A stretch of 64,000 nucleotides of DNA from an uncultured bacterium (GCA_938009275.1 CALLHY010000030.1:11776-75775); one strand, 5' to 3'; positions 30,735 to 60,682 are shown, numbered from the stretch's first letter. The notes: generated by a model from the sequence alone, not told the origin. A program made the numbers and translations.

Positions 30735-30760
30735 GGTCACGGTTCTTAAAGGATATACAG

Positions 30761-33656: not shown

Positions 33657-33665
33657 GGGGCGGCC

Positions 33666-34373: not shown

Positions 34374-34380
34374 GGTGAAC

Positions 34381-34950: not shown

Positions 34951-34985
34951 GTCGATCTTGCTTTTGTCTTGCGGAGATGCTGAAG

Positions 34986-35029
34986 ATTCTCATTGACAAA
35001 ATATGCTATTACTACACGTATGTCCATAA
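34986..35029 (+). promoter_or_regulatory. Conserved element GATT(T)TCTCATTGACA-N8-TA.TA upstream of cargo operon 1, followed by an ATGTCCA operator-like word
   Basis: gattctcattgacaaaatatgctattac (34986-35013) resembles gattttctcattgacagaagaagctaatat (44356-44385) upstream of cargo operon 2. An atgtcca word sits at 35021-35027. Confidence 0.35.
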
Positions 35030-35043
35030 GGAGTTATTGAAAG

Positions 35044-35712: not shown

Positions 35713-35724
35713 GGAGAAGATAGG

Positions 35725-37542: not shown

Positions 37543-37550
37543 GGGGTATA

Positions 37551-38462: not shown

Positions 38463-38480
38463 ACATAAGGAGATAAGGTC

Positions 38481-40305: not shown

Positions 40306-40339
40306 ATATAACAAACATCCGACTTGAAAAGGGGGTTGC

Positions 40340-41149: not shown

Positions 41150-41178
41150 CCTGGTCAAGAGTCGATTAAGGAGGATAG

Positions 41179-42546: not shown

Positions 42547-42580
42547 GATTAGTCAAAATCAATCATATTGAGGAGATAAA

Positions 42581-43465: not shown

Positions 43466-43506
43466 AAGCGAGTTACCCATCGGTAATATGAAACTATGAG
43501 GAGACT

Positions 43507-44229: not shown

Positions 44230-44355
44230 AAGCATAGTTTGGTAATGTATTCATCATCGGAGAATCGCTGGTCTGGATCAGAAACCAATGTCTAATACAA
44301 ATCAAGGTTCAATTAGAATCAAACACGAATGATCCTTTCTGCTAGGGTGGAAAAG

Positions 44356-44386
44356 GATTTTCTCATTGACAGAAGAAGCTAATATG
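44356..44386 (+). promoter_or_regulatory. Second copy of the TCTCATTGACA-N8-TA.TA element, upstream of cargo operon 2
   Basis: See 34986-35029. TTGACA is at 44366-44371. Confidence 0.35.
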
Positions 44387-44408
44387 ATTGTTTGACTTTT
44401 GGCGTGTA

Positions 44409-44686
44409 ATGGCCGAAATTAATGATGCGACTAAACGCTTGAAAGAGGCAACTGATCAGACCTTGGGAGTGTTAGGCGGATCATCTAGTTCTTTTTTTAA
44501 GGAATCAGGATGATGAGATTAGAAGACATTAAGGCAGGAGCCCTGATTCAGGGCATGGAACCAGGGGAAGTAGTGCGCATTGTTACCAGTGAGCCTATCA
44601 GGATTTTGTTTCCATGCAATTCTTCAAATCAGCACGCTTACAGCCTTATCCAAGTACTTGCAGATATGTTGGGAACAATGATATAG
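44409..44686 (+). other. Two short overlapping ORFs (34 aa and 58 aa, ATGA junction); either small leader genes or the remnant of a decayed gene
   Basis: My translations are 44409-44513 [34 protein letters not shown] and 44510-44686 [58 protein letters not shown]. Both fall below the ORF-track length cutoff. Confidence 0.25.
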
Positions 44687-44702
44687 ACGGAGGCGACAGA
44701 GA

Positions 44703-47700
44703 GTGAAGAACCTAGCCAAGAGCATCTTAAACTACTACTCTACCTACAACGAGACCAGATTCCGCTTTGATACCAGGATAAACTTTGCCTGGAGCAATGA
44801 CGACAAGACGCTGGATATTCCCTTTTTTCCTGAAGTCGCCCAAAACCTGTTAAATGAGATACAGGAGGGTAAAAGGATACATCTTTCAATCCATCCTGAA
44901 GAGCACAGCATTTCTTTGGATAGAAGGGCATTTATTGATGAGGTTTCCAGGGAAGCCAAAGATCTGTTTCCCAGATTACCAGAGACCTTTGACCCGGCAA
45001 ATCAAGAAACCAACAATGCTCTCAGGCAGTTCAATCTGGATCTTCGCTCCAAAGTCCAGGCTATACAATACAACATGCAAGCCCAGAAGATTGCCGAACT
45101 GCAAAATCTGCATGGGACATCGCATCAGCCCAAAACTAGCTTCAACCCTAGCATCAATGAGCAACTTATCTATGACAGCATCCAACGTGAGATAAACGTC
45201 ACGACTGATATTGAGCACTTTAAAGAGGCAGTCCTGCAGATCATCAAGAATTCCGAGTATACACTGGTCCTGTTTGACTTGTTTGCCCAGTTGAGGGATT
45301 TGGATAGGAAGATTGGTCTGGACAGAGTCTATCTCTTTGCCCACCAAATCAGTAATGAAGTTGGCAGCTATCCCCTCTACTTTGTTGAGTTGAGCATTGA
45401 CAACCAATTTGCTTCCATTAGTCTGGTGCAGACCCAGAAGATCATCTACTTGAATACACCAGCTATCAACGCCAACAAGCCCCAAGATGTACTGACATTA
45501 CCACGTGCTGAAGAAATGAGCAACGCACTGGCTACCATACGTCAGTTGAATGGCTTTCTAAATACCATCTACCACGGCCCCCAGGATTTTCTGATGCAGG
45601 ACAAATTCCCCAGCTTGATTTTGCCCAACTATCCAGAGATCTCCTCCCGGGTGGGATTTCAGATCGTAAAACAGGACTCAAACAACCTCCTGGATTACTC
45701 AGAATTACTAGCGCTATCTGACTCTTCAGTAGGGCAGAAATTCCTCAATTTAATAGACCAATACATCAATTCCAATGTTCCCTCTACGCAAAAAGAAGTA
45801 GAACAGCAATACTGGGATAAATACCCTCCCCGGGATGTCTGGAACATTGTCGATGACAATCCCTTCCCCTTAAACAAGTCTCAGAAAAAGATCCTTTTGG
45901 CTGCCCAAAATGAGAAAAACAAGATTATCGTTGTGGAAGGTCCTCCCGGTACCGGGAAATCGCATACTATCTCTGCGCTTGTCTATATGGCTTCAGGCTT
46001 GGGTAAAAGCGTTTTGATCACATCACACAAGAAGCAAGCGCTGGATGTCATCGAAGGTTATCTGACTGCTAAGTTTAGAAGCTTGAATCAAACAGGCAAG
46101 CCAGCCATCATCAGAATGGACAAGGCAAGCGATGGAATCGCCAATCCACCCGCTCAGACTCTGGCTAATCCAGCTTTCAACGGAGCCGCCAATAGGGTTC
46201 AGAGAATTAATATTACTGCAACAGAGCAAAAACTACAAGAGACTCTGGATAGGATCAAAGAGCAGAACCAAGTCTATTGGAAGCAGTTCAATTCGGCTTT
46301 GGTTTCGAATGATCTCATCTCCGAATACCTCGATCTGGAAAAGGATCTACAACTCCCGGAGAGCGAGATTTTTATATGTAACTTCACAGAGAAGGACGCT
46401 TCCGATCTGCTCGGATTCTTCAACCAGTTGCAGGAGATTGATTTCCCCCTCAGTTATCAGCACTTGAAGGAGTATTTCCAGAAAAGGGAAAGGTACGAGG
46501 CCTATAGAAAAGCACTGGAGCATCTAAACAAAGAAAAGACCATACCGACCTCAGCCGCTCCTGAAAGCGTAGATTTATCTTCACTGGAGGGCTTTAGCCA
46601 GATAGTTAAAGCATTAGCCATATCAATAAAAGGCGGTTTCAGTGTTTTCCAAGATGATTTGAAACCCATCAAGTTGCGCTGGGGGGATAAGTATCTTCCC
46701 CGGGCAGATGAGTTGGAATCGCTATCGGCTCTGCTAAATGATATCGAAAAGCACAGCGGATTACTGGCTGGCAAGGAAAGTAAAAAGAAACGCGAAGAGG
46801 CGGAACATGCCCTTGAACAGGATCACCCGGAGTTCTGTGACCAGGTCTTCAAGCTTAGAAAGGTCAAGGAAGCCAGAAAATACCTGGATGAAATCAAAAA
46901 GAAACTGGCTCAAAACTCAAGCGACTCCCAATTCACAGATGCTTATCTGCTGGCTGAGCACAAAAGAGTCAGCTTTGAAAGTATTAAGAGCAACCTTCAG
47001 CAGCTCGGGCATATAGATCATGCTGAGCTTATCCAAACCATAGCCGATCAAACCGGAAAAAAGAAAGATGACCTCACATTGCAGGACCTTGTAACTGGAG
47101 TTGACCTATTAGGATCTCAGAACGAGACTGGCCTGGCAAACAGCCTGATTGAAGAGCTGGCAGCCATGTTGGAAACCGATGTCAGCGCTCTTCCCCTGAT
47201 TAATACCAGATTAAAAAGAGCGCATGAGGTAGTAAGCAAGATTCAGGATACTGACTGGGATTGGTTTGATAAACTATATGATACATACCCAGCCTGGCTG
47301 GAACATCTGGGCATCGGATTGCACGATCTGAGCAACTGGAAGCAGATCCCCGCCGAAATGTTCGAGAAGATGCTCAGGTTGATCCAACTGCAGAATGAAC
47401 TGGCTGCCTTATCGGGAGCAAGTAAACCTGCACAACAGGACATTCAGGAATTCTATCGCCTTGTCCATCAGAGATATGAATATCAAAACGATGAACGCTA
47501 TTCCGACCTGATGAATTTCACAGGAGATATCAGCCGGATGCAGACCTCGATCCTCACTAAAAAACGCCTCTCCTCAGAACAAACCAGTGTGATGAACCAG
47601 CATCTAACCTGCGTGATCGCCCAACCCAGCCTGATCACGGATTACTTTCCCATGGAGGAGGATATCTTTGATTACCTGATCATCGATGAAGCTTCCCAGG

Positions 47701-49109
47701 TCTCGATTGCGGATTCATTATCGCTGATCCTGCGGGCCAAACAGGTGATCATATTTGGAGACGAACTCCAATATGGCGCGGTCAGCGCGGTTAACGTGGC
47801 AGAGCATTATGCCAGTGCCTATTTCAAGGAGATCATCCGCAGCTATAGCAAAGATCAAAACTTCCATGTCTCAGATGAAGATACTGACAGGCTGAGCCGC
47901 GAGGTCAGCAAGGCCTCTGTTGATGAAGATGAGGAGGAGACTTCCCGGATTTTCCTGCCCTCAGCCGGGAACATCGAATGGCTGAAAACCTTCAGCATCA
48001 GGACTTCCACCTTGGCTTTCTGCAGGGCGATGGCCAATTACAGTTCTGCCCTTGATGTTCACTTCCGCAGTTTCCAGGAGATCATCTCCTATTCTGCCCA
48101 GTTCTTTTACAAACAAAACAGCATCGATCTGATCATCAACCGGATCAGGACCAAACCCATCAAGCAGGTACTTAGATTTATCAGGGTAGAAACCAAAACC
48201 CATTCAGCCTCAAACGTGAACCTTGATGAGATCGAAGTGATCATGGATGAATTGAAACAACTGCACGAGCAAAATTTCAAGGGTACTGTCGGCGTGATCT
48301 GCTCTTTCAAAGAACAGCAGGCCAGGATGGAAAAGGAATTCCGGAACAAGAACTATATTACCCATTTGAAGGCTGATAATAATCTGAAGGTCTGGTTTGT
48401 AGGAGACGTGCAAGGTGAAGAGAGAGACCTGATCTTCTATTCCTTTGTCCAGGACGATAAATATAAGACAGCCGATCTCCGGACCATCTATCCTGTGGTG
48501 GGCGGCACAGCCGACAATATCCGCAAACTGAAGATGCAAAGGCTGAATGTGGGCTTTTCCCGCGCCAAGGACACCATGGTCTTCGTACATAGCATGCCCT
48601 TGGAAAAATATAACGATACCACTCTGGGCGCTGCTCTGCAACATTATCATGAGCAATTGGAAAACACACGGGACAACTATATTGAGGATGAGGGCATATT
48701 CGAATCTGAAGCAGAGAAAGAGCTGTATCGTCTGATCACGCAAACTGAGTTTTACCAGAAGCACAAGGATAAGATCAAGCTGGTGGCACAGTTCGAGATC
48801 GGTAAATACCTGGAAGATCAATACCAGCGTTATATCCCCAAATACCGGGTGGACTTTCTGCTTACTCTCAGCCAGGGAGGCAGGGAAAGATCGCTGATCC
48901 TGGAGTATGACGGCTTTGAATACCACTTTGATCCCAACTCGCCCCACGACCCCCAATATCTGGAGTATGACCTGGCCCGCCAATTGGAACTTGAGAGCTA
49001 TGGCTACAAGTTCCTACGCATAAATAAATTCAATCTGCTGCCCTCAGACCCGGCGCAGACCAAGATAAGCACCCTGAACAAATATTTGCAACAAGCCCTG
49101 GAGGAATAA
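44703..49109 (+). CDS. Large SF1 (Upf1/DNA2-like) helicase with a C-terminal DUF559/Vsr-like endonuclease-fold domain
   Basis: GTG start after GGAGG. Motifs are VVEGPPGTGKSHT (Walker A), YLIIDEASQV (motif II), IIFGDELQ and LNVGFSRAKDTMVFV (motif VI). The C-terminus reads YRVDFLL...LILEYDGFEYHF...YGYKFLRINKF. Confidence 0.85.
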   Translation: MKNLAKSILNYYSTYNETRFRFDTRINFAWSNDDKTLDIPFFPEVAQNLLNEIQEGKRIHLSIHPEEHSISLDRRAFIDEVSREAKDLFPRLPETFDPANQETNNALRQFNLDLRSKVQAIQYNMQAQKIAELQNLHGTSHQPKTSFNPSINEQLIYDSIQREINVTTDIEHFKEAVLQIIKNSEYTLVLFDLFAQLRDLDRKIGLDRVYLFAHQISNEVGSYPLYFVELSIDNQFASISLVQTQKIIYLNTPAINANKPQDVLTLPRAEEMSNALATIRQLNGFLNTIYHGPQDFLMQDKFPSLILPNYPEISSRVGFQIVKQDSNNLLDYSELLALSDSSVGQKFLNLIDQYINSNVPSTQKEVEQQYWDKYPPRDVWNIVDDNPFPLNKSQKKILLAAQNEKNKIIVVEGPPGTGKSHTISALVYMASGLGKSVLITSHKKQALDVIEGYLTAKFRSLNQTGKPAIIRMDKASDGIANPPAQTLANPAFNGAANRVQRINITATEQKLQETLDRIKEQNQVYWKQFNSALVSNDLISEYLDLEKDLQLPESEIFICNFTEKDASDLLGFFNQLQEIDFPLSYQHLKEYFQKRERYEAYRKALEHLNKEKTIPTSAAPESVDLSSLEGFSQIVKALAISIKGGFSVFQDDLKPIKLRWGDKYLPRADELESLSALLNDIEKHSGLLAGKESKKKREEAEHALEQDHPEFCDQVFKLRKVKEARKYLDEIKKKLAQNSSDSQFTDAYLLAEHKRVSFESIKSNLQQLGHIDHAELIQTIADQTGKKKDDLTLQDLVTGVDLLGSQNETGLANSLIEELAAMLETDVSALPLINTRLKRAHEVVSKIQDTDWDWFDKLYDTYPAWLEHLGIGLHDLSNWKQIPAEMFEKMLRLIQLQNELAALSGASKPAQQDIQEFYRLVHQRYEYQNDERYSDLMNFTGDISRMQTSILTKKRLSSEQTSVMNQHLTCVIAQPSLITDYFPMEEDIFDYLIIDEASQVSIADSLSLILRAKQVIIFGDELQYGAVSAVNVAEHYASAYFKEIIRSYSKDQNFHVSDEDTDRLSREVSKASVDEDEEETSRIFLPSAGNIEWLKTFSIRTSTLAFCRAMANYSSALDVHFRSFQEIISYSAQFFYKQNSIDLIINRIRTKPIKQVLRFIRVETKTHSASNVNLDEIEVIMDELKQLHEQNFKGTVGVICSFKEQQARMEKEFRNKNYITHLKADNNLKVWFVGDVQGEERDLIFYSFVQDDKYKTADLRTIYPVVGGTADNIRKLKMQRLNVGFSRAKDTMVFVHSMPLEKYNDTTLGAALQHYHEQLENTRDNYIEDEGIFESEAEKELYRLITQTEFYQKHKDKIKLVAQFEIGKYLEDQYQRYIPKYRVDFLLTLSQGGRERSLILEYDGFEYHFDPNSPHDPQYLEYDLARQLELESYGYKFLRINKFNLLPSDPAQTKISTLNKYLQQALEE

Positions 49110-49110
49110 A

Positions 49111-51318
49111 GTGAGCAAGATCCATCTATCCGACCAAGAAAAAGAGATCATCGCCAAATGCATCAATGAGAATGTCGAGTTTCCGCTGGAAATAGTAAAA
49201 AAGATCGCCCCCGGGTTCTTTGACAAGCTCGCCCAAGCCGGTGAGTTCGATTATAGACGGCTCGATAAATACAAAATCCCCATTCTGGATTATGAGGGAA
49301 AACGCAGCGAACCTGCCATCCTCGCTTCAGCCGCGCTCTTGGGTGAAAGCTCACCTCTGCAGATCCTGCGCTATTTTGACGGTAAAGAATTCAAGCACAA
49401 CGGTGACAGCCAGGAAGAGATCTTCGATATTCTGGAGAAGCAGAAGCGTGGCGAAGATGACTGGCGCAACCTGATCGTCCAGGGCGACAATCTGCTCTTT
49501 CTCAAAGCCTGCTACCTGAATCAGGACCCTTTGATCAAGGACAAGGTCAAAGGCAAGGTCAAACTGGTCTATATCGACCCGCCTTTTGGAACTGGTGATG
49601 AGTATGGGGATACGGGTGGAGTTATGAGTTATAGTGCTAAGTTAGCCGGAGCAGAGTTTATCGAATCCGTTAGAGAAAGGCTTATCTTTCTAAAGCAAAT
49701 GCTTATGGATGAAGGCAGTATCTTTGTCCGTCTTGATTATCATTTTAGTAACTATGTTAAAGTTGTTATGGATGAAGTTTTCGGATCTGAGAACTTCAGG
49801 AATGAGATTGTTATCGGAAGAACAAAAACTGCTTATTATGCTAATGTTCAAAGAACTAACCCTAAGAACTTGAGTATAAACTACGATGTTTTGTTTTGGT
49901 ACAGCATCCGACCCGAAACTACATTCAAAAATCTTAACAACGAAGTTATTATCGAGGCTAGGGATGCTTACTGGAAGGATCTCAAAACGTTTTACCCAAG
50001 ACCTGAGAAGAGGTATGAGCTTCTAGGAGTCACAATTGATGATAATTGTAGTTGGATGTGGAAGAAGGAAGACGCGCTAAAAGCAGATCATAACTATCAA
50101 GAATTTCTCGAAGTTAATAAAAAAAGGAAAGTTAGCTTGGAGGATTATTGGGAAGAGCATGACAGAGCCATTAGATTCATCCGTAGAGAAAATAACACAG
50201 TGAAGTACTGGATTGAGCCCATTAGTAAGGTTCCACATAACAACTGGATCAATATCGAGGGTTATTCTCGCGCATATGGTTATCCCACTGAGAACTCAGA
50301 AACCCTTTTAGAGAGAGTAATTGTTATGGCATCAGATTCTGATGAACTTGTTATGGATGTGTTTGGCGGCTCTGGAACAACTGCTGCAGTAGCTGAAAAA
50401 CTTGGACGAAGATGGATAACGGGAGACTTTGGAAAGCATTCTATATATACGATGCAAAAACGGATTTTAACTATCGCTGATTCAAAGAAACTTAGTTCCA
50501 ATGAGAGTAAAGGTGATAAATACGGTAAGAACGCTAAGCCATTCATAATTGCCTCAGTTGGCAGCTTCGACTTCAGCCGGATTGTTAACTTAAGGCAGCA
50601 CAAGGAAGCCTACATCAATTTCATACTAACTCTGTTCAACATCCAGGAGCGCAGTTCTGAGGAGCTGGCAAAGTACAAATTGCCCAATATCTATGGTCTG
50701 AAGGATGGCGATCCGGTGGAGATCTATCCCATCTGGGAAGACGACTACCTGAAGAATATCAAGATCGATAAGGAATACCTGAAAGGCCTGGCTGAAGCAG
50801 AGGGTGGCAAGCTCAAGGGTAACTATTATATCATTGCCCCGGAGATCTGTGACCGGGTGGGCGACTGGGATTATAGAACCTCCCAGGGCAATACCGTTAG
50901 CTTCAAGATCCTGAGCTACCCATACAAGATATTGGAAGAGATCAGCCGCTCCCAGCAGCTTTCCGAGCAGCCGGGCAGCTCTTCCGAGATCAATAAACTC
51001 ATCTCATCCACTCGTTTCTATTTTAACCAGGAAGTAACATGTAAGCTCAAATGGCATCCTCAGGGTTTAGTGATATCTGATCTTGAGACAGCCATCACCG
51101 ACAAAGCCGGTAATGAGATCCAAGGTCTGGACGCCCTGGCCATGGTGCTGATCGATAAGAACTACGACGGCAAGATGTTCACCATGGAAGCTGCGGTCTA
51201 CCGCAAGGACATCAAAGACGATGGCATCATCAACGTGGATAAGCTAACCGATAAAGTGGCGGTGATCGTGATCGACCGGCATGGCAACGAAAGTAAGATC
51301 ATAATCCTGGAGAAATGA
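49111..51318 (+). CDS. mod: Type III-like DNA methyltransferase (beta-class N6A/N4C, Mod)
   Basis: Motif IV VYIDPPFGTG precedes motif I VMDVFGGSGTTAAVA, which is the beta-class order. The GTG start is 1 nt after the upstream stop. Confidence 0.85.
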   Translation: MSKIHLSDQEKEIIAKCINENVEFPLEIVKKIAPGFFDKLAQAGEFDYRRLDKYKIPILDYEGKRSEPAILASAALLGESSPLQILRYFDGKEFKHNGDSQEEIFDILEKQKRGEDDWRNLIVQGDNLLFLKACYLNQDPLIKDKVKGKVKLVYIDPPFGTGDEYGDTGGVMSYSAKLAGAEFIESVRERLIFLKQMLMDEGSIFVRLDYHFSNYVKVVMDEVFGSENFRNEIVIGRTKTAYYANVQRTNPKNLSINYDVLFWYSIRPETTFKNLNNEVIIEARDAYWKDLKTFYPRPEKRYELLGVTIDDNCSWMWKKEDALKADHNYQEFLEVNKKRKVSLEDYWEEHDRAIRFIRRENNTVKYWIEPISKVPHNNWINIEGYSRAYGYPTENSETLLERVIVMASDSDELVMDVFGGSGTTAAVAEKLGRRWITGDFGKHSIYTMQKRILTIADSKKLSSNESKGDKYGKNAKPFIIASVGSFDFSRIVNLRQHKEAYINFILTLFNIQERSSEELAKYKLPNIYGLKDGDPVEIYPIWEDDYLKNIKIDKEYLKGLAEAEGGKLKGNYYIIAPEICDRVGDWDYRTSQGNTVSFKILSYPYKILEEISRSQQLSEQPGSSSEINKLISSTRFYFNQEVTCKLKWHPQGLVISDLETAITDKAGNEIQGLDALAMVLIDKNYDGKMFTMEAAVYRKDIKDDGIINVDKLTDKVAVIVIDRHGNESKIIILEK

Positions 51319-54185
51319 GCATGGCCAGGGAATACAGAAACAAAATCAGCCTCTCGGAATTGACCCTGGATATCGATCACCGGAAGTATGATATCGGGCA
51401 ATTTGATTTTTCCGAGATCGAAGAGTATGTGCGAGAAATCTCCAATGGCAGGCAGTATCAGTTTGACGCTATCCGGCAGATTATGGTCTACCTCTGGGGC
51501 GGGCGCTATGAATCGATAGAGGACCTGGCCCGGCAGAACTTCAAAAAGAAGGAAGCCATCCGGCAGAGGTTCTCATCGGAAAAAAAACTGCTCTCCCAGA
51601 TCCCTTTACCCGGCAAGCTCTCCGGGGTTTGCTACATGGCCACCGGAGCGGGAAAATCCTATGTGATCTTTGCTATTGCCTATCTTTCGATCCTCTTGGG
51701 GAAAGTGAAACGGGTGCTGGTGCTGGGGCCTCCCTCCACGGTAATCGAACAAGGATTGACAGAAAAATTCCGGGATTATATGTACTCACCCAAGGGACTG
51801 GCAATGAAGAATAAATTGCCGGAGAAATACCGGAACATCCAGGTCAGCCTGTGCAACGCCAATGACATTGTGGATGATTACAGCATCGTTATCGAGAATA
51901 TTAACGCTGTCTATACCAAAGGCGAGAATGCGATCACGGATATGCTCTTCAAGCATACCGAAGAAGTACTGGTTTTGAGCGATGAAGTGCACCACGCCTA
52001 TTCCCACTTGAAATTTGGCGATGCCGGAGTAGCCTTCGATTTCGATGGTATGAATTTCGGTAAAGGCGAAGATAAGAATGAGCGCTTGTGGATGAAGTTT
52101 CTGCGGGACAATCTTCTGGAAGACCAGAAACTGAGCGAGGAAACCAAGATCAAGCGCCATATTGGCTTCACGGGGACGCCTTATAACCAGAACGATTTCT
52201 TCCCTGACGTGATCTTTGATTATTCGATCAAGGACGCCCTGGAGGAGGGGATCATCAAGAGGATCAATCCTTTGCTGAAGATCAAGACCTCGGATGATGA
52301 TTCCGATCTTACCCAGGATCAGAGATATGAGCAGATCATCCAGACCCATCTGGATAACAAGGATAGATATTCCTACGGAGGGAAGGTAAAACCCATAAGC
52401 ATCTTTATCAACAACACCCAAAAAGCCGCCCAGGATAATGCAGACAAGTTTTACACAGTTTACAGCCGTTATCTTGCAAAGCATGATCCATTTTATCAAG
52501 GCCAAACCGTTAACGCTATCGAAGGTCTGCTACGTAATGACAAAGTGGTGATTGTAGCTACATCCTCAGCCAATCGGGAAGACTACCTGGATCAACTGAA
52601 CAGGATCGAGGAAACTGATCCAGTTAAAACCGGGGGCAGGACAGAATTTATCTTTGCGGTGAATAAACTCTCCGAAGGGTGGGATGTGGACAATGTGTTC
52701 CAGATCGTTCCCATGCAGGAGAAGGTGTTCAACTCCAAGCTGCTGATCTCTCAAGTTTTGGGAAGAGGGCTCAGGTTACCTCGTAAGGTTTCGTATTTTG
52801 AGCTTAAGGGCAACTACCCCGAAGTGGTGATCACCAATCATGAGAAGTTTGGCGAGACAGTGCGCAATCTCCTGGATGAGGTGCGTGAATGTGATTTGAT
52901 CGTATCTTCTAAGGTGTTTACATCAAAAGACGAGAGTCCGCGATTTAATCATCATTTCACTTTGTTCAACCTGGATTATGACTTGGTAAAAGAAATCGTG
53001 GATAAAGAGCCGGAACAGGAATCAAACCGGTCTTTGACGTTGAAACCTCAGACCAGTTCTATGACGGCGGATGTGCAATATCTACATGGGGAAAAGACTT
53101 TCACTCTGACCAAGGACTTCAGCTCTTTGGATGAGGTGGTTCTGAGCGTTTTCAGGAAGATGAAGAATGTGGAGTTTGAAAATCAGCGTCTAAACTTGGA
53201 TCGTTCTCTTGATCTGTCAAAACTCACCAACCGTGATTATATTAGAGAAGTCATCCGTGCAGCCATGCAGGATGCTGGTATCACGCAAGATGCGCTCACA
53301 AACGAGAATAAGAAGGCTGTGGAGCTTTATTTCAACAGCTTCCTGCCCCGGGGTGAGAAGAGTGTCAGGTTTGATAGAAAAGTCAATCTGGCTACTGCCT
53401 TGCGAACTCTGGAAATGAACGCCAGCAGCGTCCGGGCCGGAGCACTGGATCAAAGCAGTTCGCTGTTTGTCTCGGATGATTGGGAAAATGAGCTATCGAA
53501 TGAGTATCACATTTTTATCAATGAACTTGCCCTAACATCAGGCAAATCTGCTGATCAAACCACGATATTTGATACTGGCATTTCCGATCTGGATACCGAT
53601 CTGATCCAGAAACCGTATGAGGGCAAGAGATTCTTTACCGTAAATCTTAGCGCTTTCAAAACACCCCAAAACTGCGTTGTTTGCTCCCATATCCCGGAGA
53701 CCAACTTCATCATCGGATTGATCAAACATGCAGCCTATCTTGAGAGCTGGATCAAGTCCCCGGATATGGGTTTCTACTCCCTGGGCTATGAATACTGGAA
53801 AAGGGGCAAGGACAGGGTCCGGCGATTCTTTAATCCGGATTTCTTCATCCGCATTGATCTGGCCCGTTATCTCACGAATTGTGGTAAGAACATGCATGAT
53901 TCGGATAAAAGAAAGCTGATAGGTTTGCAGGATCAGGGTATCAGGGAACTGGTCTGCGTCGTGGAGATCAAAGCCGAAGATGATTTTGAAGAAGTAACCA
54001 ATGCTAAGGATGAGCACGGTTCCCGCCACTTTGAAGAGCTAAACAAGGAACTCAAACAAGCCAATCCGATCGATCTGCACCTAACCAGCCGGGAAACAAA
54101 GGATCAGCACTACTCCTTCTTCCTGCTGAGAGCGGATGGATTCGAATCTTGGTTCAGAAAGCTCAGGAATGGGGCTTTGATATAG
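51315..54185 (+). CDS. res: Type III restriction enzyme Res subunit (SF2 helicase plus C-terminal PD-(D/E)xK nuclease)
   Basis: ATGA overlap with mod. Motifs are MATGAGKSYV, LSDEVHHAY and NKLSEGWDVDNVFQIV. The C-terminus has NPDFFIRIDL...VVEIKAEDD. Confidence 0.85.
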   Translation: MSMAREYRNKISLSELTLDIDHRKYDIGQFDFSEIEEYVREISNGRQYQFDAIRQIMVYLWGGRYESIEDLARQNFKKKEAIRQRFSSEKKLLSQIPLPGKLSGVCYMATGAGKSYVIFAIAYLSILLGKVKRVLVLGPPSTVIEQGLTEKFRDYMYSPKGLAMKNKLPEKYRNIQVSLCNANDIVDDYSIVIENINAVYTKGENAITDMLFKHTEEVLVLSDEVHHAYSHLKFGDAGVAFDFDGMNFGKGEDKNERLWMKFLRDNLLEDQKLSEETKIKRHIGFTGTPYNQNDFFPDVIFDYSIKDALEEGIIKRINPLLKIKTSDDDSDLTQDQRYEQIIQTHLDNKDRYSYGGKVKPISIFINNTQKAAQDNADKFYTVYSRYLAKHDPFYQGQTVNAIEGLLRNDKVVIVATSSANREDYLDQLNRIEETDPVKTGGRTEFIFAVNKLSEGWDVDNVFQIVPMQEKVFNSKLLISQVLGRGLRLPRKVSYFELKGNYPEVVITNHEKFGETVRNLLDEVRECDLIVSSKVFTSKDESPRFNHHFTLFNLDYDLVKEIVDKEPEQESNRSLTLKPQTSSMTADVQYLHGEKTFTLTKDFSSLDEVVLSVFRKMKNVEFENQRLNLDRSLDLSKLTNRDYIREVIRAAMQDAGITQDALTNENKKAVELYFNSFLPRGEKSVRFDRKVNLATALRTLEMNASSVRAGALDQSSSLFVSDDWENELSNEYHIFINELALTSGKSADQTTIFDTGISDLDTDLIQKPYEGKRFFTVNLSAFKTPQNCVVCSHIPETNFIIGLIKHAAYLESWIKSPDMGFYSLGYEYWKRGKDRVRRFFNPDFFIRIDLARYLTNCGKNMHDSDKRKLIGLQDQGIRELVCVVEIKAEDDFEEVTNAKDEHGSRHFEELNKELKQANPIDLHLTSRETKDQHYSFFLLRADGFESWFRKLRNGALI

Positions 54186-54212
54186 TATCATTACACATTA
54201 AGGAAGTATTGT

Positions 54213-55265
54213 ATGACAAACACAACTGATAAAGCGCTGCTGGTTGGCAATGGCATCAACAGGGTGTTTTGCGATTCAGACTACTCCTGGAGTGATCTAT
54301 TACAGGATCTGTCAAACATTCGTTCGGGAAATATTGATCTGAGTAATCCCTTTAAGCCTTTACCTCTAGCCTTTGAAGAGATTCTTAAAGCTAAAAACAA
54401 CGATTATAAAAATGCTGTTCGAGTGTTGAAAAAGAAAACTGCTGAGATATTTGCAAAGCTTCCTGTTCGGGAAGTCCACAGAATGATAGCCGGTAATACT
54501 AAGTATCGGAATATAATGACCACAAATTACGAGTATACTTTGGAAAAAGCTTATGCAGAGATTCATTATCCAAATAGTGACTTCAGGGATCATTGCATAA
54601 GTAAGTTAAGCACAAATGAAGAAATTCACAGTCTTATGAGAAAGTATGAGTTTGCTGATGAGCGCCTTGTAGTTTGGCATATCCATGGTGAGATTAATCA
54701 TACCAAGTATTCAAATGCGGAAAAAATCCTGCCTAGCAATTCAATCTTGATCGGATACAATCAATACATATCATATCTTGATACTATCTATCGGTATTTC
54801 TTTACAAATAAGAAGACCAAATATACAGAATACTCATCTCTACAGGAGAAAATGACTAAATGCATGGCTGACCTGAATAGATTGGACATCGACACCTGGA
54901 TCGATTTCTTCTTTTTCAGAGATATTGATATCATTGGACTTACACTGGACTTCTCAGAGATGCATCTTTGGTGGATACTCAATCGCCGATTTAGCCTAAT
55001 CAAAGACTCTGATATATTCAATGAGGAGTCTGATAAAAAGGCATCATTTAACCCAACAAACACGATCACATACTACTACCCCAAACTAAGCAAGAACTGC
55101 TTGGAAGAGAAGTGCTCTGATGCCCTGAATGATGTTAAACAAAAGGCAATATTGAATATGCTCGAAGTGTTAGGAGTAATCACCAAAGCCGTAAAGTGTA
55201 GATCCTATGAAGATTATTATACTCATGTATTGGGTAATAACGTAATCGCTTCGCAGCGAGCATAA
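54213..55265 (+). CDS. AbiH-like / SIR2_2-like protein (tentative)
   Basis: The N-terminal ALLVGNGINRVF...YSWSDLL and the later VVWHIHGEINH resemble the GNG/GAG start and the (K/H)xHG motif of AbiH and SIR2_2-type defence proteins. This is recollection only. Confidence 0.4.
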   Translation: MTNTTDKALLVGNGINRVFCDSDYSWSDLLQDLSNIRSGNIDLSNPFKPLPLAFEEILKAKNNDYKNAVRVLKKKTAEIFAKLPVREVHRMIAGNTKYRNIMTTNYEYTLEKAYAEIHYPNSDFRDHCISKLSTNEEIHSLMRKYEFADERLVVWHIHGEINHTKYSNAEKILPSNSILIGYNQYISYLDTIYRYFFTNKKTKYTEYSSLQEKMTKCMADLNRLDIDTWIDFFFFRDIDIIGLTLDFSEMHLWWILNRRFSLIKDSDIFNEESDKKASFNPTNTITYYYPKLSKNCLEEKCSDALNDVKQKAILNMLEVLGVITKAVKCRSYEDYYTHVLGNNVIASQRA

Positions 55266-55338
55266 GCGCTAAAAGGCTGTTTCGGCATTAGCATTATTGC
55301 ATACAGTTTTTATTGCTTTGGGGATATTGGGAGAATGA

Positions 55339-58300
55339 ATGTCATACAAAGCTTTGGATGAAGTTCTAAGCAACTTTCAAGATAGAATAATCGGCGTAAA
55401 ATCGATCGATTCTCGTGAGGCTGTATATGAGTCTATACCGGAAAGTTGCCATAGCTCCATTAAGAAGGGGCTGGCAACTTTGGGTATCAAGCAATTGTAT
55501 AGCCACCAAGCCAAGATGTTTTCGGAAGTATACGAGGGCAGGAATGTTATCATTACCACGGGTACTTCCAGTGGAAAATCTTTGGCTTTTTACCTGCCAG
55601 TACTACAAAGTATCATTGAAGATTCACGCGTAAGAGCACTCTTTGTCTATCCAACCAAAGCTCTGGCACAAGATCAAAAAGCAAGCCTGGAGAAGTTCCT
55701 TAAAGCAATCAAATGCAAACCAGAGATAACTGTTGGAGTATACGATGGAGACACTCCGCCCTCAGAACGAAAGAGCATACGAGACCATGCGAATATCATA
55801 CTGACCAATCCGGACATGCTGAATGTCAGCTTCCTGCCAAACCATAATAAGTATGGATTCCAAGAGATCTTTCGATATCTTGACTTTGTGGTCCTGGATG
55901 AGTTGCATGTTTATCGAGGAGCCTTCGGGACACATGTGGCAAATCTCATGCGCAGATTACTCCGTATCTGTAACTACCACGGAGTATCTCCACAATTTCT
56001 TTGCAGCAGTGCCACCATTGCCAATCCTCTTGAACTAGCGCAAAATATCTGTTCCAAACCATTTATCCATCTCGAACAGGATGGTTCGTTCAATTCCGGG
56101 AAAAAGCTGGTTTTTTGGCAGTGTCCACTTCATAATGATTCTCTCAATGAGGTTACAAACCTGATACCTGATCTGGTTGTTAATGATATCAGTAGCATCA
56201 CATTCTGTCAGAGCCGGCGAGACGTAGAGGTTGCTTCACGGGAGATCTGTGGAATCCTGGCTCAGCAGCACGGAAGTATTCATCTACAAAACAAAGTGTC
56301 GGCTTATCGCTCTGGCCTCACTCCCAATGAGAGAAGATCTATCGAGTTTAACCTGCGCACGGGAAAACTTAGAGGAGTGATTTCGACTAATGCGCTCGAA
56401 TTGGGTATAGATATTGGATCATTGGATGCGGTTGTAATGGCAGGATTCCCGGGAACCAAAGCTAGCTTCTGGCAACAAGCTGGTAGAGCAGGCAGAAGAT
56501 CCGGGGATGCTTGGATAGTAATCATTCTATCCAATCGGCCTATTGAACATTACATTGCCCAAGACCTCGATTGGTTAACAGATTCCAGCGTGGAAAATGC
56601 GATAATAGATATCAGCAATATTTTCATTCAGATGGCTCACATCAGAGCCGCAGCATATGAGTTACCGCTATCAAGAACAGACATCAAGTACTTCCATGAT
56701 CTTGGTGTAATAGCTCAAAAGCTAGTTGAGACTGGCGAACTGACTCAGGAAAGTGATCAATTCCTATGGGCTCATAAAAACAATACTAATCCCGCAATGG
56801 AGATCAGTTTACGTAACATGAGCAACGAAAGCATCGATGTTGTGGATAGACAGAGTGAAAAGACTATTACATCTACAGATCTGATTACCGCAAAGTATGA
56901 GCTTTTCCCGGGAGCTATCTACCTCCATGACGGTGTTCAGTATAAAGTACTGGCATTAGATTTTGAACAAAAACAAGCCATATTAACCGGAGTTAACAGC
57001 AACCACTACACTGTGCCTTTCGTGAATACCTCGGTCAGAATACTCGGAACAGTACATCATAAACCAATATTCAGGTGTAAGGCTGCTTGGGGTGACGTCA
57101 AAGTAACTGCCCTAATCAATGCTTATAAAAAAATAGCATATTTCACTCATGAGAACCTTGGCTATGAAGAACTGGATACCGATCAAAGGGTTGATTTGGA
57201 TACCGAGGGTACCTGGATATTGCTGCCGGAAAACCTGCAAGCATTGCCTTCAAGACTAGGATCTGGAGAAGAATCTCCCGTGAACAGAGACTCCAAATAT
57301 GATATTGATGGATTGGTCTTTGCCCTGGTAAACGCGGCATCGATCAGAACAATGGCTTCTTATAGTGATATCGGCGGTACGGTATTTGGGATCGATAAAC
57401 CCCCCAAGTCATCTCTGTTGATCTATGACAAATACAATGGAGGGCTTGGATTTGCCCAGAAGATCTACGAAGTGATTGATGATGTGATCCTGGATGCGAT
57501 AAAAATTGTCGAATCCTGTCCATGTAAACATGGCTGTCCTTCATGTGTTGGACATATGCAAATTGATAAGAACATCGTTTTATGGGCACTGCGCAATCTA
57601 AGGGTAGAATCGCCTATGCCAGAATCTCTGGAGCTGTTACAACAAACTCCCTTAGTAAATCCTAATCCAATCATCCGGGAAAAGTACAAATTGAACTGGA
57701 TCGAAGAGCATTGGAGCGAATTCGCCGATAGTTTCAAGCTAAGCTATCCAGATACCTATCAATTTCTCTTACTCGTACAAGGAGTAACTATACTGGAAAG
57801 CACGATTCACATAGCGGTTTGGAAGTCCAGGATTTATTTTTTGCCAGATTACAAGGACTACTTATCGTCGGTCAGGGAAGATATCCGGAAGTCGATTCAT
57901 GAGCCAGTGGAGGTTATAATTGACTTAGAGGATGATCCTGGGCTTCAAGCAAAGCAAGCAAAACTTGATAGGCATTTCAACAAAAGCCCTGCCATCGAAG
58001 TAAAAGGTTCAAGTCCTCCAGAGGGGGGTATACAATCTACTGCTACTAAAAAATCTTCTGCAGATTCTCAGAAGAGCGAGTCTCTTGACGATGCCGGTGC
58101 CATGGTTACAGAATTCGATTCAAGTACTTCTGAATTGCTTCTTTGGTGCCTGGAGTATGAAGATTATGAACAAGTACTGGATCTGCCAAACAAAGTCTTA
58201 GTATCGATCCTTACGCAAAAATCGGGAAGCCAAGTTATAAAAGCAATCCGTAGCTCTGCAAACTACCAAAAGTTGCTGAAATATATCGTTAAAATGCATC

Positions 58301-60117
58301 GTTCATCTAGTGTCCAATGCACTGCATTAAGCCTTGTAGAAGATGATTTATTCATTGTTGACACAGCTCTCAATAGTCTTTATGCCAGTATTCGCCAAAC
58401 AGCTGCTGATATGATCGTCGACCCGCAATTGCTTCTAAAGATAGCATTGAATGACAGAAGCAGTAAGATACGGGCATCTATGGTGGAGAGAATTAAAGAT
58501 CCAGCATTGTTAGAGCAGGTAGTTCTGGATAGCAAAGAGCAGGATACCATGAAGCAAGCGCTCAAATTAATCGATGACATTGATATTTTAACAAGATTGT
58601 CGTCAGAAAGTAAGTTTGCTGCAATTAGAAACATGGCTTTATCACGACTAAATAAAACACGAAACCGAATCGAAAAAGCTGAGAGAGCCGCAGAAAATGA
58701 AGGGCAAAATCATAAGCCACAAAAACAACAATCAGCTTTCGATAAAATGATGAAGGCAACCGGTACTGTCAAACCGATTTATCAACGAGGCAAAGGACCT
58801 GAAAAACGAAAAACACCATGGGTAGAATTGAGGGACAAGTATCAGGAGGAGTTTTCAGGTATCAAGATTGAACGTCCGCAATTGAATTTAGAAGTATTCA
58901 ACAAGAGCAAGGACTTAACCAAGCTGATCAGGTCCATCTTAGTAGAAGAGAACACCTGGGTACAGGAACAAGACCTCTTTATTGTAGAAGAGGACTCATG
59001 GGAACAGGTACAAGACCTATACACTCTCGTTGCACTGAAGAAAATTGCGTTTGAACTTTCTGGCAAAAAATCTAACGCTAAACTAACGATTGAAACCGAA
59101 TCAGTTTTTAAGGATATTGTTCTAAGTAAAAGAAGCCAGAAATCCAAGCTGGCTGCTATACGGGGTATTGATGATCAACAATTCTTAAAATACCTGCTTT
59201 TTGCCGGAGCAGATAAAGATCATCGCTTGGCTGCAGTGCAAAACATAACCGACCTGTATTTATTGGAACAACTCACTAAACTGGATCGTAGCAAGGATGT
59301 CCGCGAGCAAGCTTATCATAGGTTGTTAGATCTCAAATGGGCAGCTACTAGAGGTGATGGAATTGATAATAGTCTGGCAGTTTTTTTTAAAAAGTCTAGT
59401 CTTGTTGTTATCGACACAGAAACAACTGGATTGACTCCAACCGATCGGATCTGTCAACTTGCTCTTGTTAAGTTTGATTCGTCCGGTGTTGAGACTTTTT
59501 CTGACTACTGTAATCCTCATGTTCCAGTTAATCCCTTTGCTTATATGGTTCATGGCTTATCAGACTCGTTTCTAAAGAAACAGAAAGATATCAAGAAAAC
59601 TCCAACCTACAAGAAGTTGAATGAGTTTATCGCTGAAAAATGCGTTTTCGTTTTTCACAATGCTCCATTTGATCTTCGTTTCCTGTCTTACGCTGGTGTT
59701 AAGATTAATAATCCTGTGGTAGATACCTTGAAAATAATCAGGCAGATGAAGTGTTTCCAGGATAATAAGCTGAGCACAGCATTAACATTTCTAAAGAGAA
59801 TCTTCCCTGACTTGAATGTCAAACCACATGATGCTCTGGGCGATGCTATGACCACTCTGCATTTATTAAAATGGCTGTACCAAGCTTATCCTTGTCACGT
59901 TGGTAGAATGATCTACGAGGGTGGCAATTATTCAGCACATACTGACACTGTTCCACGCACGCCTACCCGATCCCGTAAAAAGAGTAGTAAAAAGCCAAAA
60001 AGTAAGGTTGTCAAAGAACCCAAGGCGAAATCTATAAGTAATGTATCCTTTGACGAGGAAGAAGATGACTTATTCGAATTATACGACGATTTAGAAGATG
60101 ATTTTTACGATTTCTAG
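55339..60117 (+). CDS. YprA/MrfA-type DEAD/DEAH helicase with DUF1998 zinc module, fused to HEAT-like repeats and a C-terminal DnaQ-like DEDDh 3'-5' exonuclease
   Basis: Helicase: LYSHQ, TGTSSGKSLAFYLP, PTKALAQDQ, VLDELHVYRG, TNALELGIDIG and QQAGRAGRR. DUF1998: YDKYNGGLGF...CPCKHGCPSCV. Exonuclease: VVIDTETTGL, FHNAPFDLRFL and HDALGDA. The tail reads ...EEEDDLFELYDDLEDDFYDF. Confidence 0.85.
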   Translation: MSYKALDEVLSNFQDRIIGVKSIDSREAVYESIPESCHSSIKKGLATLGIKQLYSHQAKMFSEVYEGRNVIITTGTSSGKSLAFYLPVLQSIIEDSRVRALFVYPTKALAQDQKASLEKFLKAIKCKPEITVGVYDGDTPPSERKSIRDHANIILTNPDMLNVSFLPNHNKYGFQEIFRYLDFVVLDELHVYRGAFGTHVANLMRRLLRICNYHGVSPQFLCSSATIANPLELAQNICSKPFIHLEQDGSFNSGKKLVFWQCPLHNDSLNEVTNLIPDLVVNDISSITFCQSRRDVEVASREICGILAQQHGSIHLQNKVSAYRSGLTPNERRSIEFNLRTGKLRGVISTNALELGIDIGSLDAVVMAGFPGTKASFWQQAGRAGRRSGDAWIVIILSNRPIEHYIAQDLDWLTDSSVENAIIDISNIFIQMAHIRAAAYELPLSRTDIKYFHDLGVIAQKLVETGELTQESDQFLWAHKNNTNPAMEISLRNMSNESIDVVDRQSEKTITSTDLITAKYELFPGAIYLHDGVQYKVLALDFEQKQAILTGVNSNHYTVPFVNTSVRILGTVHHKPIFRCKAAWGDVKVTALINAYKKIAYFTHENLGYEELDTDQRVDLDTEGTWILLPENLQALPSRLGSGEESPVNRDSKYDIDGLVFALVNAASIRTMASYSDIGGTVFGIDKPPKSSLLIYDKYNGGLGFAQKIYEVIDDVILDAIKIVESCPCKHGCPSCVGHMQIDKNIVLWALRNLRVESPMPESLELLQQTPLVNPNPIIREKYKLNWIEEHWSEFADSFKLSYPDTYQFLLLVQGVTILESTIHIAVWKSRIYFLPDYKDYLSSVREDIRKSIHEPVEVIIDLEDDPGLQAKQAKLDRHFNKSPAIEVKGSSPPEGGIQSTATKKSSADSQKSESLDDAGAMVTEFDSSTSELLLWCLEYEDYEQVLDLPNKVLVSILTQKSGSQVIKAIRSSANYQKLLKYIVKMHRSSSVQCTALSLVEDDLFIVDTALNSLYASIRQTAADMIVDPQLLLKIALNDRSSKIRASMVERIKDPALLEQVVLDSKEQDTMKQALKLIDDIDILTRLSSESKFAAIRNMALSRLNKTRNRIEKAERAAENEGQNHKPQKQQSAFDKMMKATGTVKPIYQRGKGPEKRKTPWVELRDKYQEEFSGIKIERPQLNLEVFNKSKDLTKLIRSILVEENTWVQEQDLFIVEEDSWEQVQDLYTLVALKKIAFELSGKKSNAKLTIETESVFKDIVLSKRSQKSKLAAIRGIDDQQFLKYLLFAGADKDHRLAAVQNITDLYLLEQLTKLDRSKDVREQAYHRLLDLKWAATRGDGIDNSLAVFFKKSSLVVIDTETTGLTPTDRICQLALVKFDSSGVETFSDYCNPHVPVNPFAYMVHGLSDSFLKKQKDIKKTPTYKKLNEFIAEKCVFVFHNAPFDLRFLSYAGVKINNPVVDTLKIIRQMKCFQDNKLSTALTFLKRIFPDLNVKPHDALGDAMTTLHLLKWLYQAYPCHVGRMIYEGGNYSAHTDTVPRTPTRSRKKSSKKPKSKVVKEPKAKSISNVSFDEEEDDLFELYDDLEDDFYDF

Positions 60118-60245: not shown

Positions 60246-60410
60246 TTTGCAGAAATCCTGTCAGAATTTGCAGTTTTCGGTGATCCGATTTGCAGAAAGC
60301 CTGTCCAAAACCACCTAAACAGGTCTTGGGAAGGATGAGCAAGGATGTCCCACGATGCGACAGTTTGCAGATTTCGCTGCACAATATGCAGTTTTCGTTG
60401 TCAGTTTGCA
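60246..60410. repeat. Right-end array of TTTGCAG-type sites (putative transposase-binding sites), including the right terminal inverted repeat 60380-60410
   Basis: TTTGCAG occurs at 60246, 60267, 60289 and 60364, TATGCAG at 60385 and the terminal TTTGCA at 60405-60410. The inverse CTGCAA(A/G) is at 29359 and 29485 in the left end. Confidence 0.6.
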
Positions 60411-60415
60411 CCGTT
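60411..60415. repeat. Right copy of the putative 5-bp target-site duplication CCGTT
   Basis: It immediately follows ...TGTCAGTTTGCA. Confidence 0.5.
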
Positions 60416-60682
60416 ACTTTATCACTCCTTCACCCTATTGGCTCGTTTTTTCTTGACAATTGAACTACACACAAAAAACTCCGCAAAGCTATATTTTGTA
60501 ACAACGAGAGCTTGCATATAAAAACAGCTAAAGGCAGTGTGTATGAAGGATGAATGCAGTTTGGCATCATCATTTCATGAGGATATGCTTGTTAAGCCCA
60601 ACATATCCAAAGACATTCATTAGAATACCCGCTTGTGTTTCGTGTAGATGAGAGATTAAGAACATAATGAACTGGAGGTAAT

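Follow-up and report, generated by a model that had tools for sequence, protein, structure and literature searches.

Analysis of a 64,000-nucleotide (nt) stretch of DNA from an uncultured bacterium (GCA_938009275.1 CALLHY010000030.1:11776-75775; hereafter the window) revealed that a block of five genes at 44703-60117 begins with a conserved unit, in which a gene for a giant helicase-nuclease precedes the methyltransferase and restriction genes of a type III restriction-modification (R-M) pair; judged from sequence, this unit is apparently a variant of type III R-M with three genes that has not been described before. The block is part of a Candidatus Cloacimonadota defence island, and we consider it probable that it is modular, consisting of this three-gene variant, an NADase of the kind that occurs as a guest in R-M operons and a gene of the MrfAB-fusion type, probably co-transcribed, and that it is not one obligatory system. 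At the level of sequence, the catalytic motifs of the block are intact, its genes are packed as in an operon, and the first three genes (P1, Mod and Res) are conserved together and co-diverge. The features of the block and its borders are as follows, with protein lengths in amino acids (aa) and with SF1 and SF2 denoting helicase superfamilies 1 and 2.

44230-44702, + strand: leader, a 474-nt intergenic region, probably the block's promoter and regulatory region
44703-49109, + strand: P1, Upf1-like SF1 helicase with a Vsr/DUF559-like nuclease, 1468 aa
49111-51318, + strand: Mod, beta-class N6/N4 DNA methyltransferase, 735 aa
51315-54185, + strand: Res, SF2 helicase with a C-terminal PD-(D/E)xK nuclease, 956 aa
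54213-55265, + strand: P4, SIR2_2-family protein, predicted to be an effector of the R-M "guest" type that consumes nicotinamide adenine dinucleotide (NAD), 350 aa
55339-60117, + strand: P5, fusion of an MrfA/YprA-type helicase to a DEDDh exonuclease, 1592 aa
60246-60410, + strand: conserved right flank with five TTTGCAG-type repeats; island boundary, possibly the end of a mobile element

The five open reading frames (ORFs) found in the ORF listing are separated by 1 (P1/Mod), −4 (Mod/Res), 27 (Res/P4) and 73 nt (P4/P5). The P1 stop codon lies 1 nt 5′ of the Mod start (TAA-A-GTG), Mod and Res share an ATGA stop/start overlap (51315-51318), and a GGAG-type ribosome-binding site precedes each of the five starts. 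No terminator-like hairpin was found on the + strand in any of the four junctions, the first one after P5 being at 60376-60392, and non-coding DNA brackets the block, with 474 nt upstream and 566 nt downstream. The original prediction, made from the sequence alone, had given the five co-directional ORFs with coordinates and junction lengths that all proved exact, and the operon-like packing that it described is borne out by these gaps; the five genes are likely, on this evidence, to be co-transcribed as one unit. Promoter and terminator scans over the block returned hits at chance density only (32 against 35.7 expected and 14 against 14.3), which is uninformative either way on internal promoters.

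Neighbourhood surveys anchored on P1, P4 and P5 showed that the first three genes belong together. The P1 survey, a metagenome scan with a P1 alignment, yielded 79 loci, and linkage was counted for the homologs whose 3′ end lies within the contig. Mod was found downstream on the same strand in 21 of the 23 metagenomic homologs with at least 36% identity to P1, and both Mod and Res were present in 12 of the 13 that had at least 3.5 kb of flank, whereas none of 27 P1 relatives below 36% identity had Mod downstream. P1 was always 5′ of Mod-Res and on the same strand in the linked loci, and a further triad was found among housekeeping genes on a 1.9-Mb contig (L187). When 11 loci were compared pair by pair, the identities of P1, Mod and Res were correlated with one another (r = 0.92-0.97), even for pairs that are less than 70% identical. 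P1 homologs thus recurrently flank type III genes, the claim that the block is more than a plain Mod+Res pair was confirmed, and the conserved, co-diverging linkage with Mod-Res argues that the position of P1 is not random stacking.

For most of the stand-alone P1 relatives, the tblastn matches begin at about residue 160-390 and lack the first ~190 residues. In 8 of about 24 triads, P1 and Mod are separated by a guest gene, encoding a Fic, DUF1016/YhcG, ORF6N, Schlafen/AlbA_2 or Abi_2 protein, indicating that the triad takes up guests in the manner of an R-M operon, as is known of R-M, BREX and Hma operons. Neither P4 nor P5 turned up in any of the 13 diverged triads that have enough flank, not even where 4-5 kb after Res or 10 kb before P1 is available. 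A plasmid collection contained no P1-type triad; a single distant relative of P1 was present, together with three relatives of the Mod-Res type that are 27-30% identical. In the literature, we found no description of a triad of a helicase with type III Mod and Res, and nothing relevant on "ProA" or "PDC-S37", although coverage was incomplete and this is not proof of novelty. On the 1.9-Mb contig, an Abi_2 gene lies between P1 and Mod, and Mod itself is split into two frames near residues 119-139 (15644-17786), which could reflect phase variation, a pseudogene or an assembly error.

P1 combines an AAA_11/AAA_12 SF1 helicase, according to its Pfam matches, with a weakly matching MTES_1575/Vsr-like C-terminus. 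Its Walker A motif is GPPGTGKS (nt 45939-45962), the motif DEASQ lies at 47685-47699, an insertion of about 460 aa separates the RecA lobes, and the C-terminal Vsr/DUF559-like nuclease carries RVDF...EYDGFEYH (nt 48846-48926), with the motifs RVDF...EYDGxEYH invariant across homologs. The N-terminal domain (aa 1-350) is family-specific; its AlphaFold2 (AF2) model is confident, with a predicted local distance difference test score of 84, and a Foldseek comparison with the PDB gave no fold match (best E 0.048, template modelling score 0.12). The domain is also rare, with 99 clusters matched among 1.84 billion representatives, and every full-length match is a large protein (1329-1663 aa) in which the domain is N-terminal. 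Pfam scans gave no credible match for residues 1-386 and ~500-980.

No defence model placed P1 at member level: its PADLOC scores were 107 bits for MkoA, 99 bits (in pieces) for PDC-S37 and 66.6 bits (in three fragments) for Hhe, and its NCBIfam scores were 102 for ProA against a cut-off of 1500 and 80.6 for Hhe against a cut-off of 2000. The proposal that P1 resembles the single-gene Hhe system therefore held only in part: the helicase/Vsr architecture is similar, but P1 is not a member of Hhe. Identity with Hhe was rejected on the basis of this score, the lack of a Pfam DUF4011 match and the fact that P1 is not a solo gene, with Mod present beside 21 of 23 homologs. As judged by these profiles, P1 is akin in architecture to Hhe, PDC-S37 and CnuH and is a member of none of them.

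Type III R-M is regarded as a two-protein system of Mod and Res, whose hallmarks are ATP-dependent cleavage that requires a pair of unmethylated sites in inverse orientation and a Mod that hemimethylates DNA. Mod and Res of the block share the architecture of type III pairs. Mod is a beta-class enzyme in which motif IV of the DPPY/F type (DPPF, residues 156-159, nt 49576-49587) precedes motif I of the FxGxG type (FGGSG, residues 418-422, nt 50362-50376), and a variable target-recognition region (aa ~200-400, nt ~49708-50310) lies between both motifs. It scores 107 bits with Pfam N6_N4_Mtase and 145 bits with PADLOC MTase_III, and its best PDB match is EcoP15I Mod. The Mod alleles of sister loci are 14-38% identical in aa 200-400 and mostly more than 85% identical elsewhere. 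This is the textbook pattern of swapped recognition domains, and it implies that operons that are nearly the same in all else differ in methylation specificity.

Res, in turn, has the SF2 motifs TGAGKS, DEVHH, TGTPYN and GRGLR, which are invariant in 12-18 homologs, and a C-terminal PD-(D/E)xK nuclease with PDFF (841-844, nt 53835-53846) and VEIK (883-886, nt 53961-53972), also invariant in homologs. The mod gene lies directly 5′ of res with the ATGA overlap, and the order is the same in every homologous locus. Pfam ResIII is the sole model whose cut-off Res passed (49.8 against 22.5), with SWI2_SNF2 also matched, and its scores with curated type III models are weak (39 bits over part of PADLOC REase_III; 62.9 against 800 for NCBIfam BPTD_3080). 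No PDB sequence matched Res at E ≤ 0.01, and Pfam scans gave no credible match for residues ~546-812.

The fourth gene, P4, matches Pfam SIR2_2 (PF13289) with 29.6 bits against a gathering cut-off of 24.5. It carries the motifs GNGIN (aa 12-16), an invariant T104-N105-Y106 and HIHG (aa 156-159), and N105, H156, H158 and G159 are invariant in 43 homologs, so that the Asn and His of the SIR2 site are kept. There was no PADLOC or NCBIfam match, and P4 matched neither the models of named SIR2 defence proteins (ThsA, DSR, SIR2-HerA) nor that of AbiH; the "AbiH/SIR2-like" description given earlier is therefore right as to SIR2_2, whereas AbiH (PF14253) appeared only in a few distant homologs. In the P4 survey, which covered the genomes of 185,579 species and gave 80 loci, the triad was present only in L001. 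Of 79 loci, 17 had R-M genes, most of them type I hsdR/S/M, no more than three genes away from the P4 homolog, and the rest had none; several homologs sit between hsdS and hsdM. P4 occurs alone in L086-088, and a 54%-identical homolog stands alone among housekeeping genes. From this distribution, P4 is best described as an unnamed SIR2_2 family that is a recurrent associate of R-M operons, and such lodging has a precedent in the "guilt-by-embedding" of defence genes in R-M, BREX and Hma operons (Payne et al. 2024). P4 and P5 as a two-gene module was rejected, as P4 occurs without P5 (L081-088) and P5 without P4 (L168, L169, L184). In L026/L027, an MrfA-like gene is found near P4 homologs, separated from them by four opposite-strand genes.

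P5 has Pfam matches to DEAD, Helicase_C, WHD_HRQ1, MZB/DUF1998 and RNase_T. Residues 2-739 (nt 55342-57555) are colinear in one stretch with B. subtilis YprA/MrfA (PDB 6znp residues 4-732; E 3.7e-145, 488 bits), and the TIGR03817 score of 566 bits does not reach the cut-off of 874.1, pointing to a divergent member or sister group of MrfA/YprA. A match to a 2108-aa DEAD/DEAH helicase structure (9tu7) reached 66 bits only. The C-terminal DEDDh 3′-5′ exonuclease (aa 1356-1510, nt 59404-59868) has invariant DTETTG, HNAPFD and HDALGD motifs, scores 90.8 bits with RNase_T (residues 1356-1509) and matches DnaQ and TREX1 in fold. For the stretch between helicase and exonuclease (aa ~785-1350), the AF2 model predicts a small alpha/beta domain that a disordered linker joins to long helical repeats; Pfam scans gave no credible match for residues 740-1354, and when the C-terminal model was compared with PDB folds, the DEDDh domain alone was matched and not the helical repeats. 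The long fusion form is rare (11 clusters), and the nearest non-fused homologs, about 45% identical, come largely from named isolates and metagenome-assembled genomes (MAGs) of Bacteroidota and Bacillota.

The YprA family divides into a repair branch and a defence branch; the latter comprises DISARM, Dpd, Druantia and ARMADA and is the only one with inserts that interrupt the OB-CON-DUF1998 module, and MrfB-associated and MrfB-fused YprA helicases fall in the repair branch (Bell et al. 2025). The architecture of P5 is uninterrupted and MrfB-fused, so the affinity to DISARM or Druantia that had been suggested from the DUF1998 helicase fails, with 488-566 bits for MrfA/YprA as opposed to 75 for DrmA and 138 for DruE. 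By its domain architecture, P5 belongs to the MrfAB repair branch. Assignment of P5 as a DISARM helicase was rejected, as PADLOC DrmA gave 74.7 bits against the 488-566 bits of MrfA/YprA and the block has no PLD-domain gene. No Drm methylase was among the best 25 of the 41 PADLOC matches of Mod, and Res had no Drm match. Assignment as Druantia DruE was likewise rejected, the 138 bits being in three fragments of a 2023-position profile and partner genes (DruA-D, DruH) being absent. The block was also rejected as ARMADA, since Mod is a beta-class N6_N4 enzyme, Res has no BrxHII match and P5 is of the MrfA type.

Outside the five-gene arrangement, P5 occurs without the triad beside TaqI_C, HTH (helix-turn-helix) and Fic genes (L169/170). 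A P5-type MrfA-DEDDh fusion of 1426 aa (L184, 325-6283) is followed 59 nt later by a reverse transcriptase (RT) gene (RVT_1, 539 aa), on a contig with only 324 nt upstream of P5, too short to judge the triad. In L168, a separate 383-aa RNase_T (MrfB-like) gene (14984-16135) follows the P5 homolog, giving a fused and a free exonuclease at one locus.

Comparison of sister loci indicated how the block was assembled. The five-gene order is also present on at least five other contigs (L085, L171, L172/173, L174/175) and so is not due to chance. All these full copies share flanks, the leader and about 290 nt after P5 being 82-94% identical at the nt level, which points to one evolutionary event; all five genes together were found in one lineage only, near TniA/TniB-like transposition genes. 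Other loci of the same island have a different content. L001 has a triad with 96/76/95% identity, a P4 truncated at residue 172 and then two unrelated small genes and no P5, and L081-084 have Mod-Res, two small genes, P4 and two other genes, again without P5. The triads of L171 and L172 share 97-100% identity with that of the window, compared with 69-71% for P4 and 78-82% for P5, a drop that indicates a recombination break at the Res/P4 boundary.

That the block is nothing but a stack of four independent units in a defence hotspot, namely a Hhe/PDC-S37-like P1, a two-gene type III R-M system, a SIR2 gene for abortive infection (Abi) and an MrfAB fusion, appears unlikely to us. Such stacking would fit the nearest PADLOC models of P1 (PDC-S37, MkoA/C, Hhe), which are single-gene systems or helicase components, the solitary occurrence of P1 relatives with 24-35% identity (none of 27 with Mod) and also of Mod-Res relatives, the guest genes that the P1-Mod junction takes in about one third of the loci, and the surroundings, which are those of a defence island (bSEFIR, IetA-like ATPase) with TniA/TniB-like genes nearby. 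Yet chance co-location in a hotspot would not yield the linkage in 21 of 23 homologs with P1 always 5′ of Mod-Res on the same strand, the co-divergence (r = 0.96) that extends down to 40% identity, the 1-nt stop/start spacing of P1 and Mod, or a P1 N-terminal region that is unmatched in most stand-alone relatives. The original prediction took independent occurrence of the components in other genomes as the mark of simple stacking, and this was found for P4 and P5 and not for P1. Conversely, a single integrated, methylation-linked system of five genes, in which Mod marks self, Res cuts foreign DNA, P1 (an SF1B motor of the Upf1 type, 5′-3′) and P5 (an MrfA-type motor, 3′-5′, with a 3′-5′ exonuclease) process the break in a RecBCD-like manner and, should this fail, P4 kills the cell by NAD depletion, would explain the operon-like packing with no terminator between genes, an order kept on at least five contigs despite figures of 67-89% for the divergence of P4 and P5, the retention of P5 beside the triad after rearrangement in L168 (44-57% identity), and a list of parts that parallels ARMADA type II and DISARM. 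We regard it as quite unlikely, given that P4 and P5 are found in 0 of 13 diverged triads with enough flank, that P5 (L169/170) and P4 (L086-088 and 77 genome loci) both occur without the triad, that L001 and L081-084 lack P5 within the same island, that the full copies trace to a single event, and that L168 is probably the same island diverged, with a shared TniB-like, AAA and PHP block. The proposal of a hybrid or new methylation-linked system thus finds support for P1, which is linked to Mod-Res, and largely none for the five genes as a set, P4 and P5 not being conserved with the triad. A further reading makes P5 a housekeeping DNA-repair enzyme for bulky adducts and cross-links that sits at the edge of the island and has no defence role. 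Its full-length colinearity with B. subtilis MrfA, its DEDDh domain, as intact as in MrfB, the placement of MrfB-associated or MrfB-fused YprA in the repair branch by Bell et al. 2025 and the presence of its non-fused homologs (~45% identical) largely in named Bacteroidota and Bacillota isolates and MAGs would all agree with this. The long fusion is nonetheless rare (11 clusters) and patchy, every context seen consists of variable defence-type genes (the triad; TaqI_C, HTH and Fic; RT), and P5 lies inside conserved island flanks and is present or absent among sister loci, unlike a core repair gene, making this reading highly improbable.

Several observations weigh against the modular reading that we prefer and against its three-gene core. 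Relatives of Mod-Res that are about 30% identical are plain pairs without P1 (on viral contigs and a Mucilaginibacter plasmid) and distant P1 relatives also exist alone, so P1 could be just another autonomous neighbour; because triad sampling was anchored on P1, Mod-Res pairs of the same clade without P1 would escape it. As for P5, L168 (P1 57% and P5 44% identical) keeps P5 by the triad, in divergent orientation and with no P4, which could reflect a functional link of P5 and triad rather than shared descent, and the five-gene order has been kept despite P4 divergence down to 67% identity. L168 does, on the other hand, share TniB-like, AAA and PHP genes with the window; it is probably the same island diverged, and the neighbourhood of P5 and triad there may therefore be a matter of shared descent.

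Under the modular reading, the following course of events can be proposed. From knowledge of the type III family, Mod would methylate an asymmetric site, which its exchangeable recognition domain determines, and would recruit Res, an ATP-driven SF2 motor, to unmethylated foreign DNA, where Res would communicate between unmethylated sites in an ATP-dependent manner and cut with its PD-ExK domain. P1, probably produced from the same message, most likely works on the same DNA: its clade-specific N-terminal region could dock on Mod-Res, and P1 would load at the nick or end made by Res, unwinding and cutting the DNA such that one restriction event would destroy the invader irreversibly or be harder to evade by phage repair. 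P4 most likely provides an NAD-depleting abortive-infection backup of the type that lodges in R-M operons. P5, as a 3′-5′ helicase with a 3′-5′ exonuclease, might degrade 3′-ended invader DNA, or else repair or trim collateral damage, acting alone or in loose synergy with the triad. A more speculative idea, which we think very unlikely, is that in this lineage the five genes have been joined into a methylation-gated machine for DNA destruction, with the first cut made by the type III-like Mod-Res, both strands resected in a RecBCD-like manner by two helicase-nucleases of opposite polarity, P1 (Upf1-type, 5′-3′, Vsr endonuclease) and P5 (MrfA-type, 3′-5′, DEDDh exonuclease), and SIR2 as an NAD-depleting fail-safe; if true, a MrfAB of the repair branch would have been recruited to immunity, and a DISARM/ARMADA-like solution would have arisen from non-homologous parts.

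Both borders of the block are conserved. The leader is 92-94% identical (nt) in L085 and L001 and 90% identical over 288 nt in L174-176. It has one promoter-like site (44360-44388), with such sites at chance density across the region. The leader also contains two small ORFs at 44388-44686, which are 41 and 58 aa long and have 4 nt in common, and a 67-aa gene has been called at the matching position in L175/176; we found no evidence that the two leader ORFs are genes. At the right flank, homology with L085, L171, L172, L001 and L081/082/084 ends at ~60393-60413 in every comparison, just past the last of five TTTGCAG(W3)NC repeats. Four of these + strand repeats are exact and the fifth differs at one position, and the array may be a transposase-binding end. 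The search for a possible left transposon end turned up nothing stronger than a weak inverted match of 14 nt at about 29.5 kb (29486-29517), and no target-site duplication was found. About 100 nt beyond the right flank, 60473-60571 is 76% identical to 9830-9926 of L169/L170, directly upstream of a solo P5 (Cloacimonetes HGW-3); the match may represent a shared regulatory or attachment sequence.

TniA/TniB-like genes lie about 11 kb upstream of the five-gene block, and the island may be the cargo of a Tn7/Tn5053-like element. The annotated genes of this region are as follows.

31077-33656: Mu-type DDE transposase (rve and Mu-transpos_C; TniA-like)
33666-34373: TniB-like ATPase
35725-37542: IetA-like AAA ATPase
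37551-38462: REase-ARP
40340-41149: Sel1
41179-42546: PHP

In the region 30548-44229, the transposase and TniB-like genes are followed by a conserved co-directional block of HTH, a 222-aa gene, IetA-like, REase-ARP, Sel1, PHP and other genes. This block is also found ahead of the triad in L174-176 and, in part, in L168. It could be cargo of a transposon and, in itself, a candidate multi-gene defence system. Just outside the right flank is a bSEFIR-type TIR/SEFIR gene (61407-62861, PADLOC 262 bits), flanked by two ORFs without annotation (60683-61396 and 62877-63782). At the other end of the window, 2944-10535 encodes two tandem paralogs (1264 and 1238 aa), gingipain-like C25 peptidases with C-terminal sorting domains of the type IX secretion system, as would fit a host of the FCB group (Cloacimonadota). 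The window is assigned to Candidatus Cloacimonadota by the names that members of the same 90%-identity protein clusters bear and by the near-identical locus L001.

The two-protein picture of type III R-M would be extended by a clade that almost always encodes a helicase-nuclease of 1,400-1,660 aa upstream of mod-res, usually on the same message, and in which this protein co-evolves with Mod and Res. If true, some restriction systems use a dedicated third motor-nuclease, raising the question of whether restriction needs, or gains from, a helicase that processes DNA after cleavage. Standard tools would probably miss the system, given that P1, P4 and P5 have no member-level PADLOC or NCBIfam match and Res matches weakly. 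The locus also exemplifies modular turnover within one island, where Mod recognition domains are swapped, guests are inserted and the P4/P5 modules are replaced, and it places a MrfAB-type "repair" fusion in a defence context.

Comparison with known systems shows what each part shares with its relatives and where it departs from them. P1 has in common with Hhe, PDC-S37 and CnuH (type III-B CoCoNuT) the AAA_11/AAA_12 Upf1-like core, the large helical insertion after Walker A and the C-terminal Vsr-type PD-(D/E)xK nuclease. It differs from them in scoring far below membership and lacking a DUF4011 match, in having its own N-terminal domain with no PDB fold match, and in having Mod and Res as partners instead of McrBC/CnuE or the life of a solo gene. 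P4 resembles the defence genes that lodge in R-M, BREX or Hma operons (among them PrrC, from type I R-M, TgvAB and the candidates of Payne et al. 2024): its relatives lie inside or beside type I R-M operons, in the same direction, in 17 of 79 loci, P4 itself lies 27 nt after Res, and triads elsewhere host Fic, DUF1016, ORF6N, Schlafen and Abi_2. In contrast to PrrC, however, P4 is a SIR2_2 protein and not an ABC-ATPase anticodon nuclease, and it differs from the embedded genes in having no PADLOC match, any guarding of, or triggering by, an R-M enzyme being hypothetical.

P5 shares with MrfAB (YprA/YprB, mitomycin repair in B. subtilis) a colinear helicase that includes the DUF1998/MZB zinc module and the partner activity of a DEDDh 3′-5′ exonuclease, and Bell et al. 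2025 refer to fused forms. P5, however, unites both activities in a single protein of 1592 aa, in which extra alpha/beta and helical-repeat domains of about 600 aa separate them, and the gene is found in variable defence islands and not in a housekeeping position. At the level of the whole block, DISARM class 1 and ARMADA type II have analogous parts, a Swi2/Snf2-like helicase, an adenine methylase, a YprA-family DUF1998 helicase and an SF1 helicase-nuclease or toxin, whereas here the parts are of other subfamilies, Mod being a beta-class N6_N4 enzyme and not PglX-like and P5 lying outside the DrmA/ArmC branch, a PLD nuclease DrmC is missing, the genes stand in another order and P5 is not conserved with the methylase module. 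The closest comparison is with type III R-M as in EcoP15I and EcoP1I, which likewise have a beta-class Mod with a swappable recognition domain, a mod gene that overlaps the downstream res and a Res that joins an SF2 helicase to a C-terminal nuclease. The block departs from these systems in a Res that is very divergent in sequence and in a third gene, P1, that in its clade is almost always upstream and co-diverges with Mod and Res.

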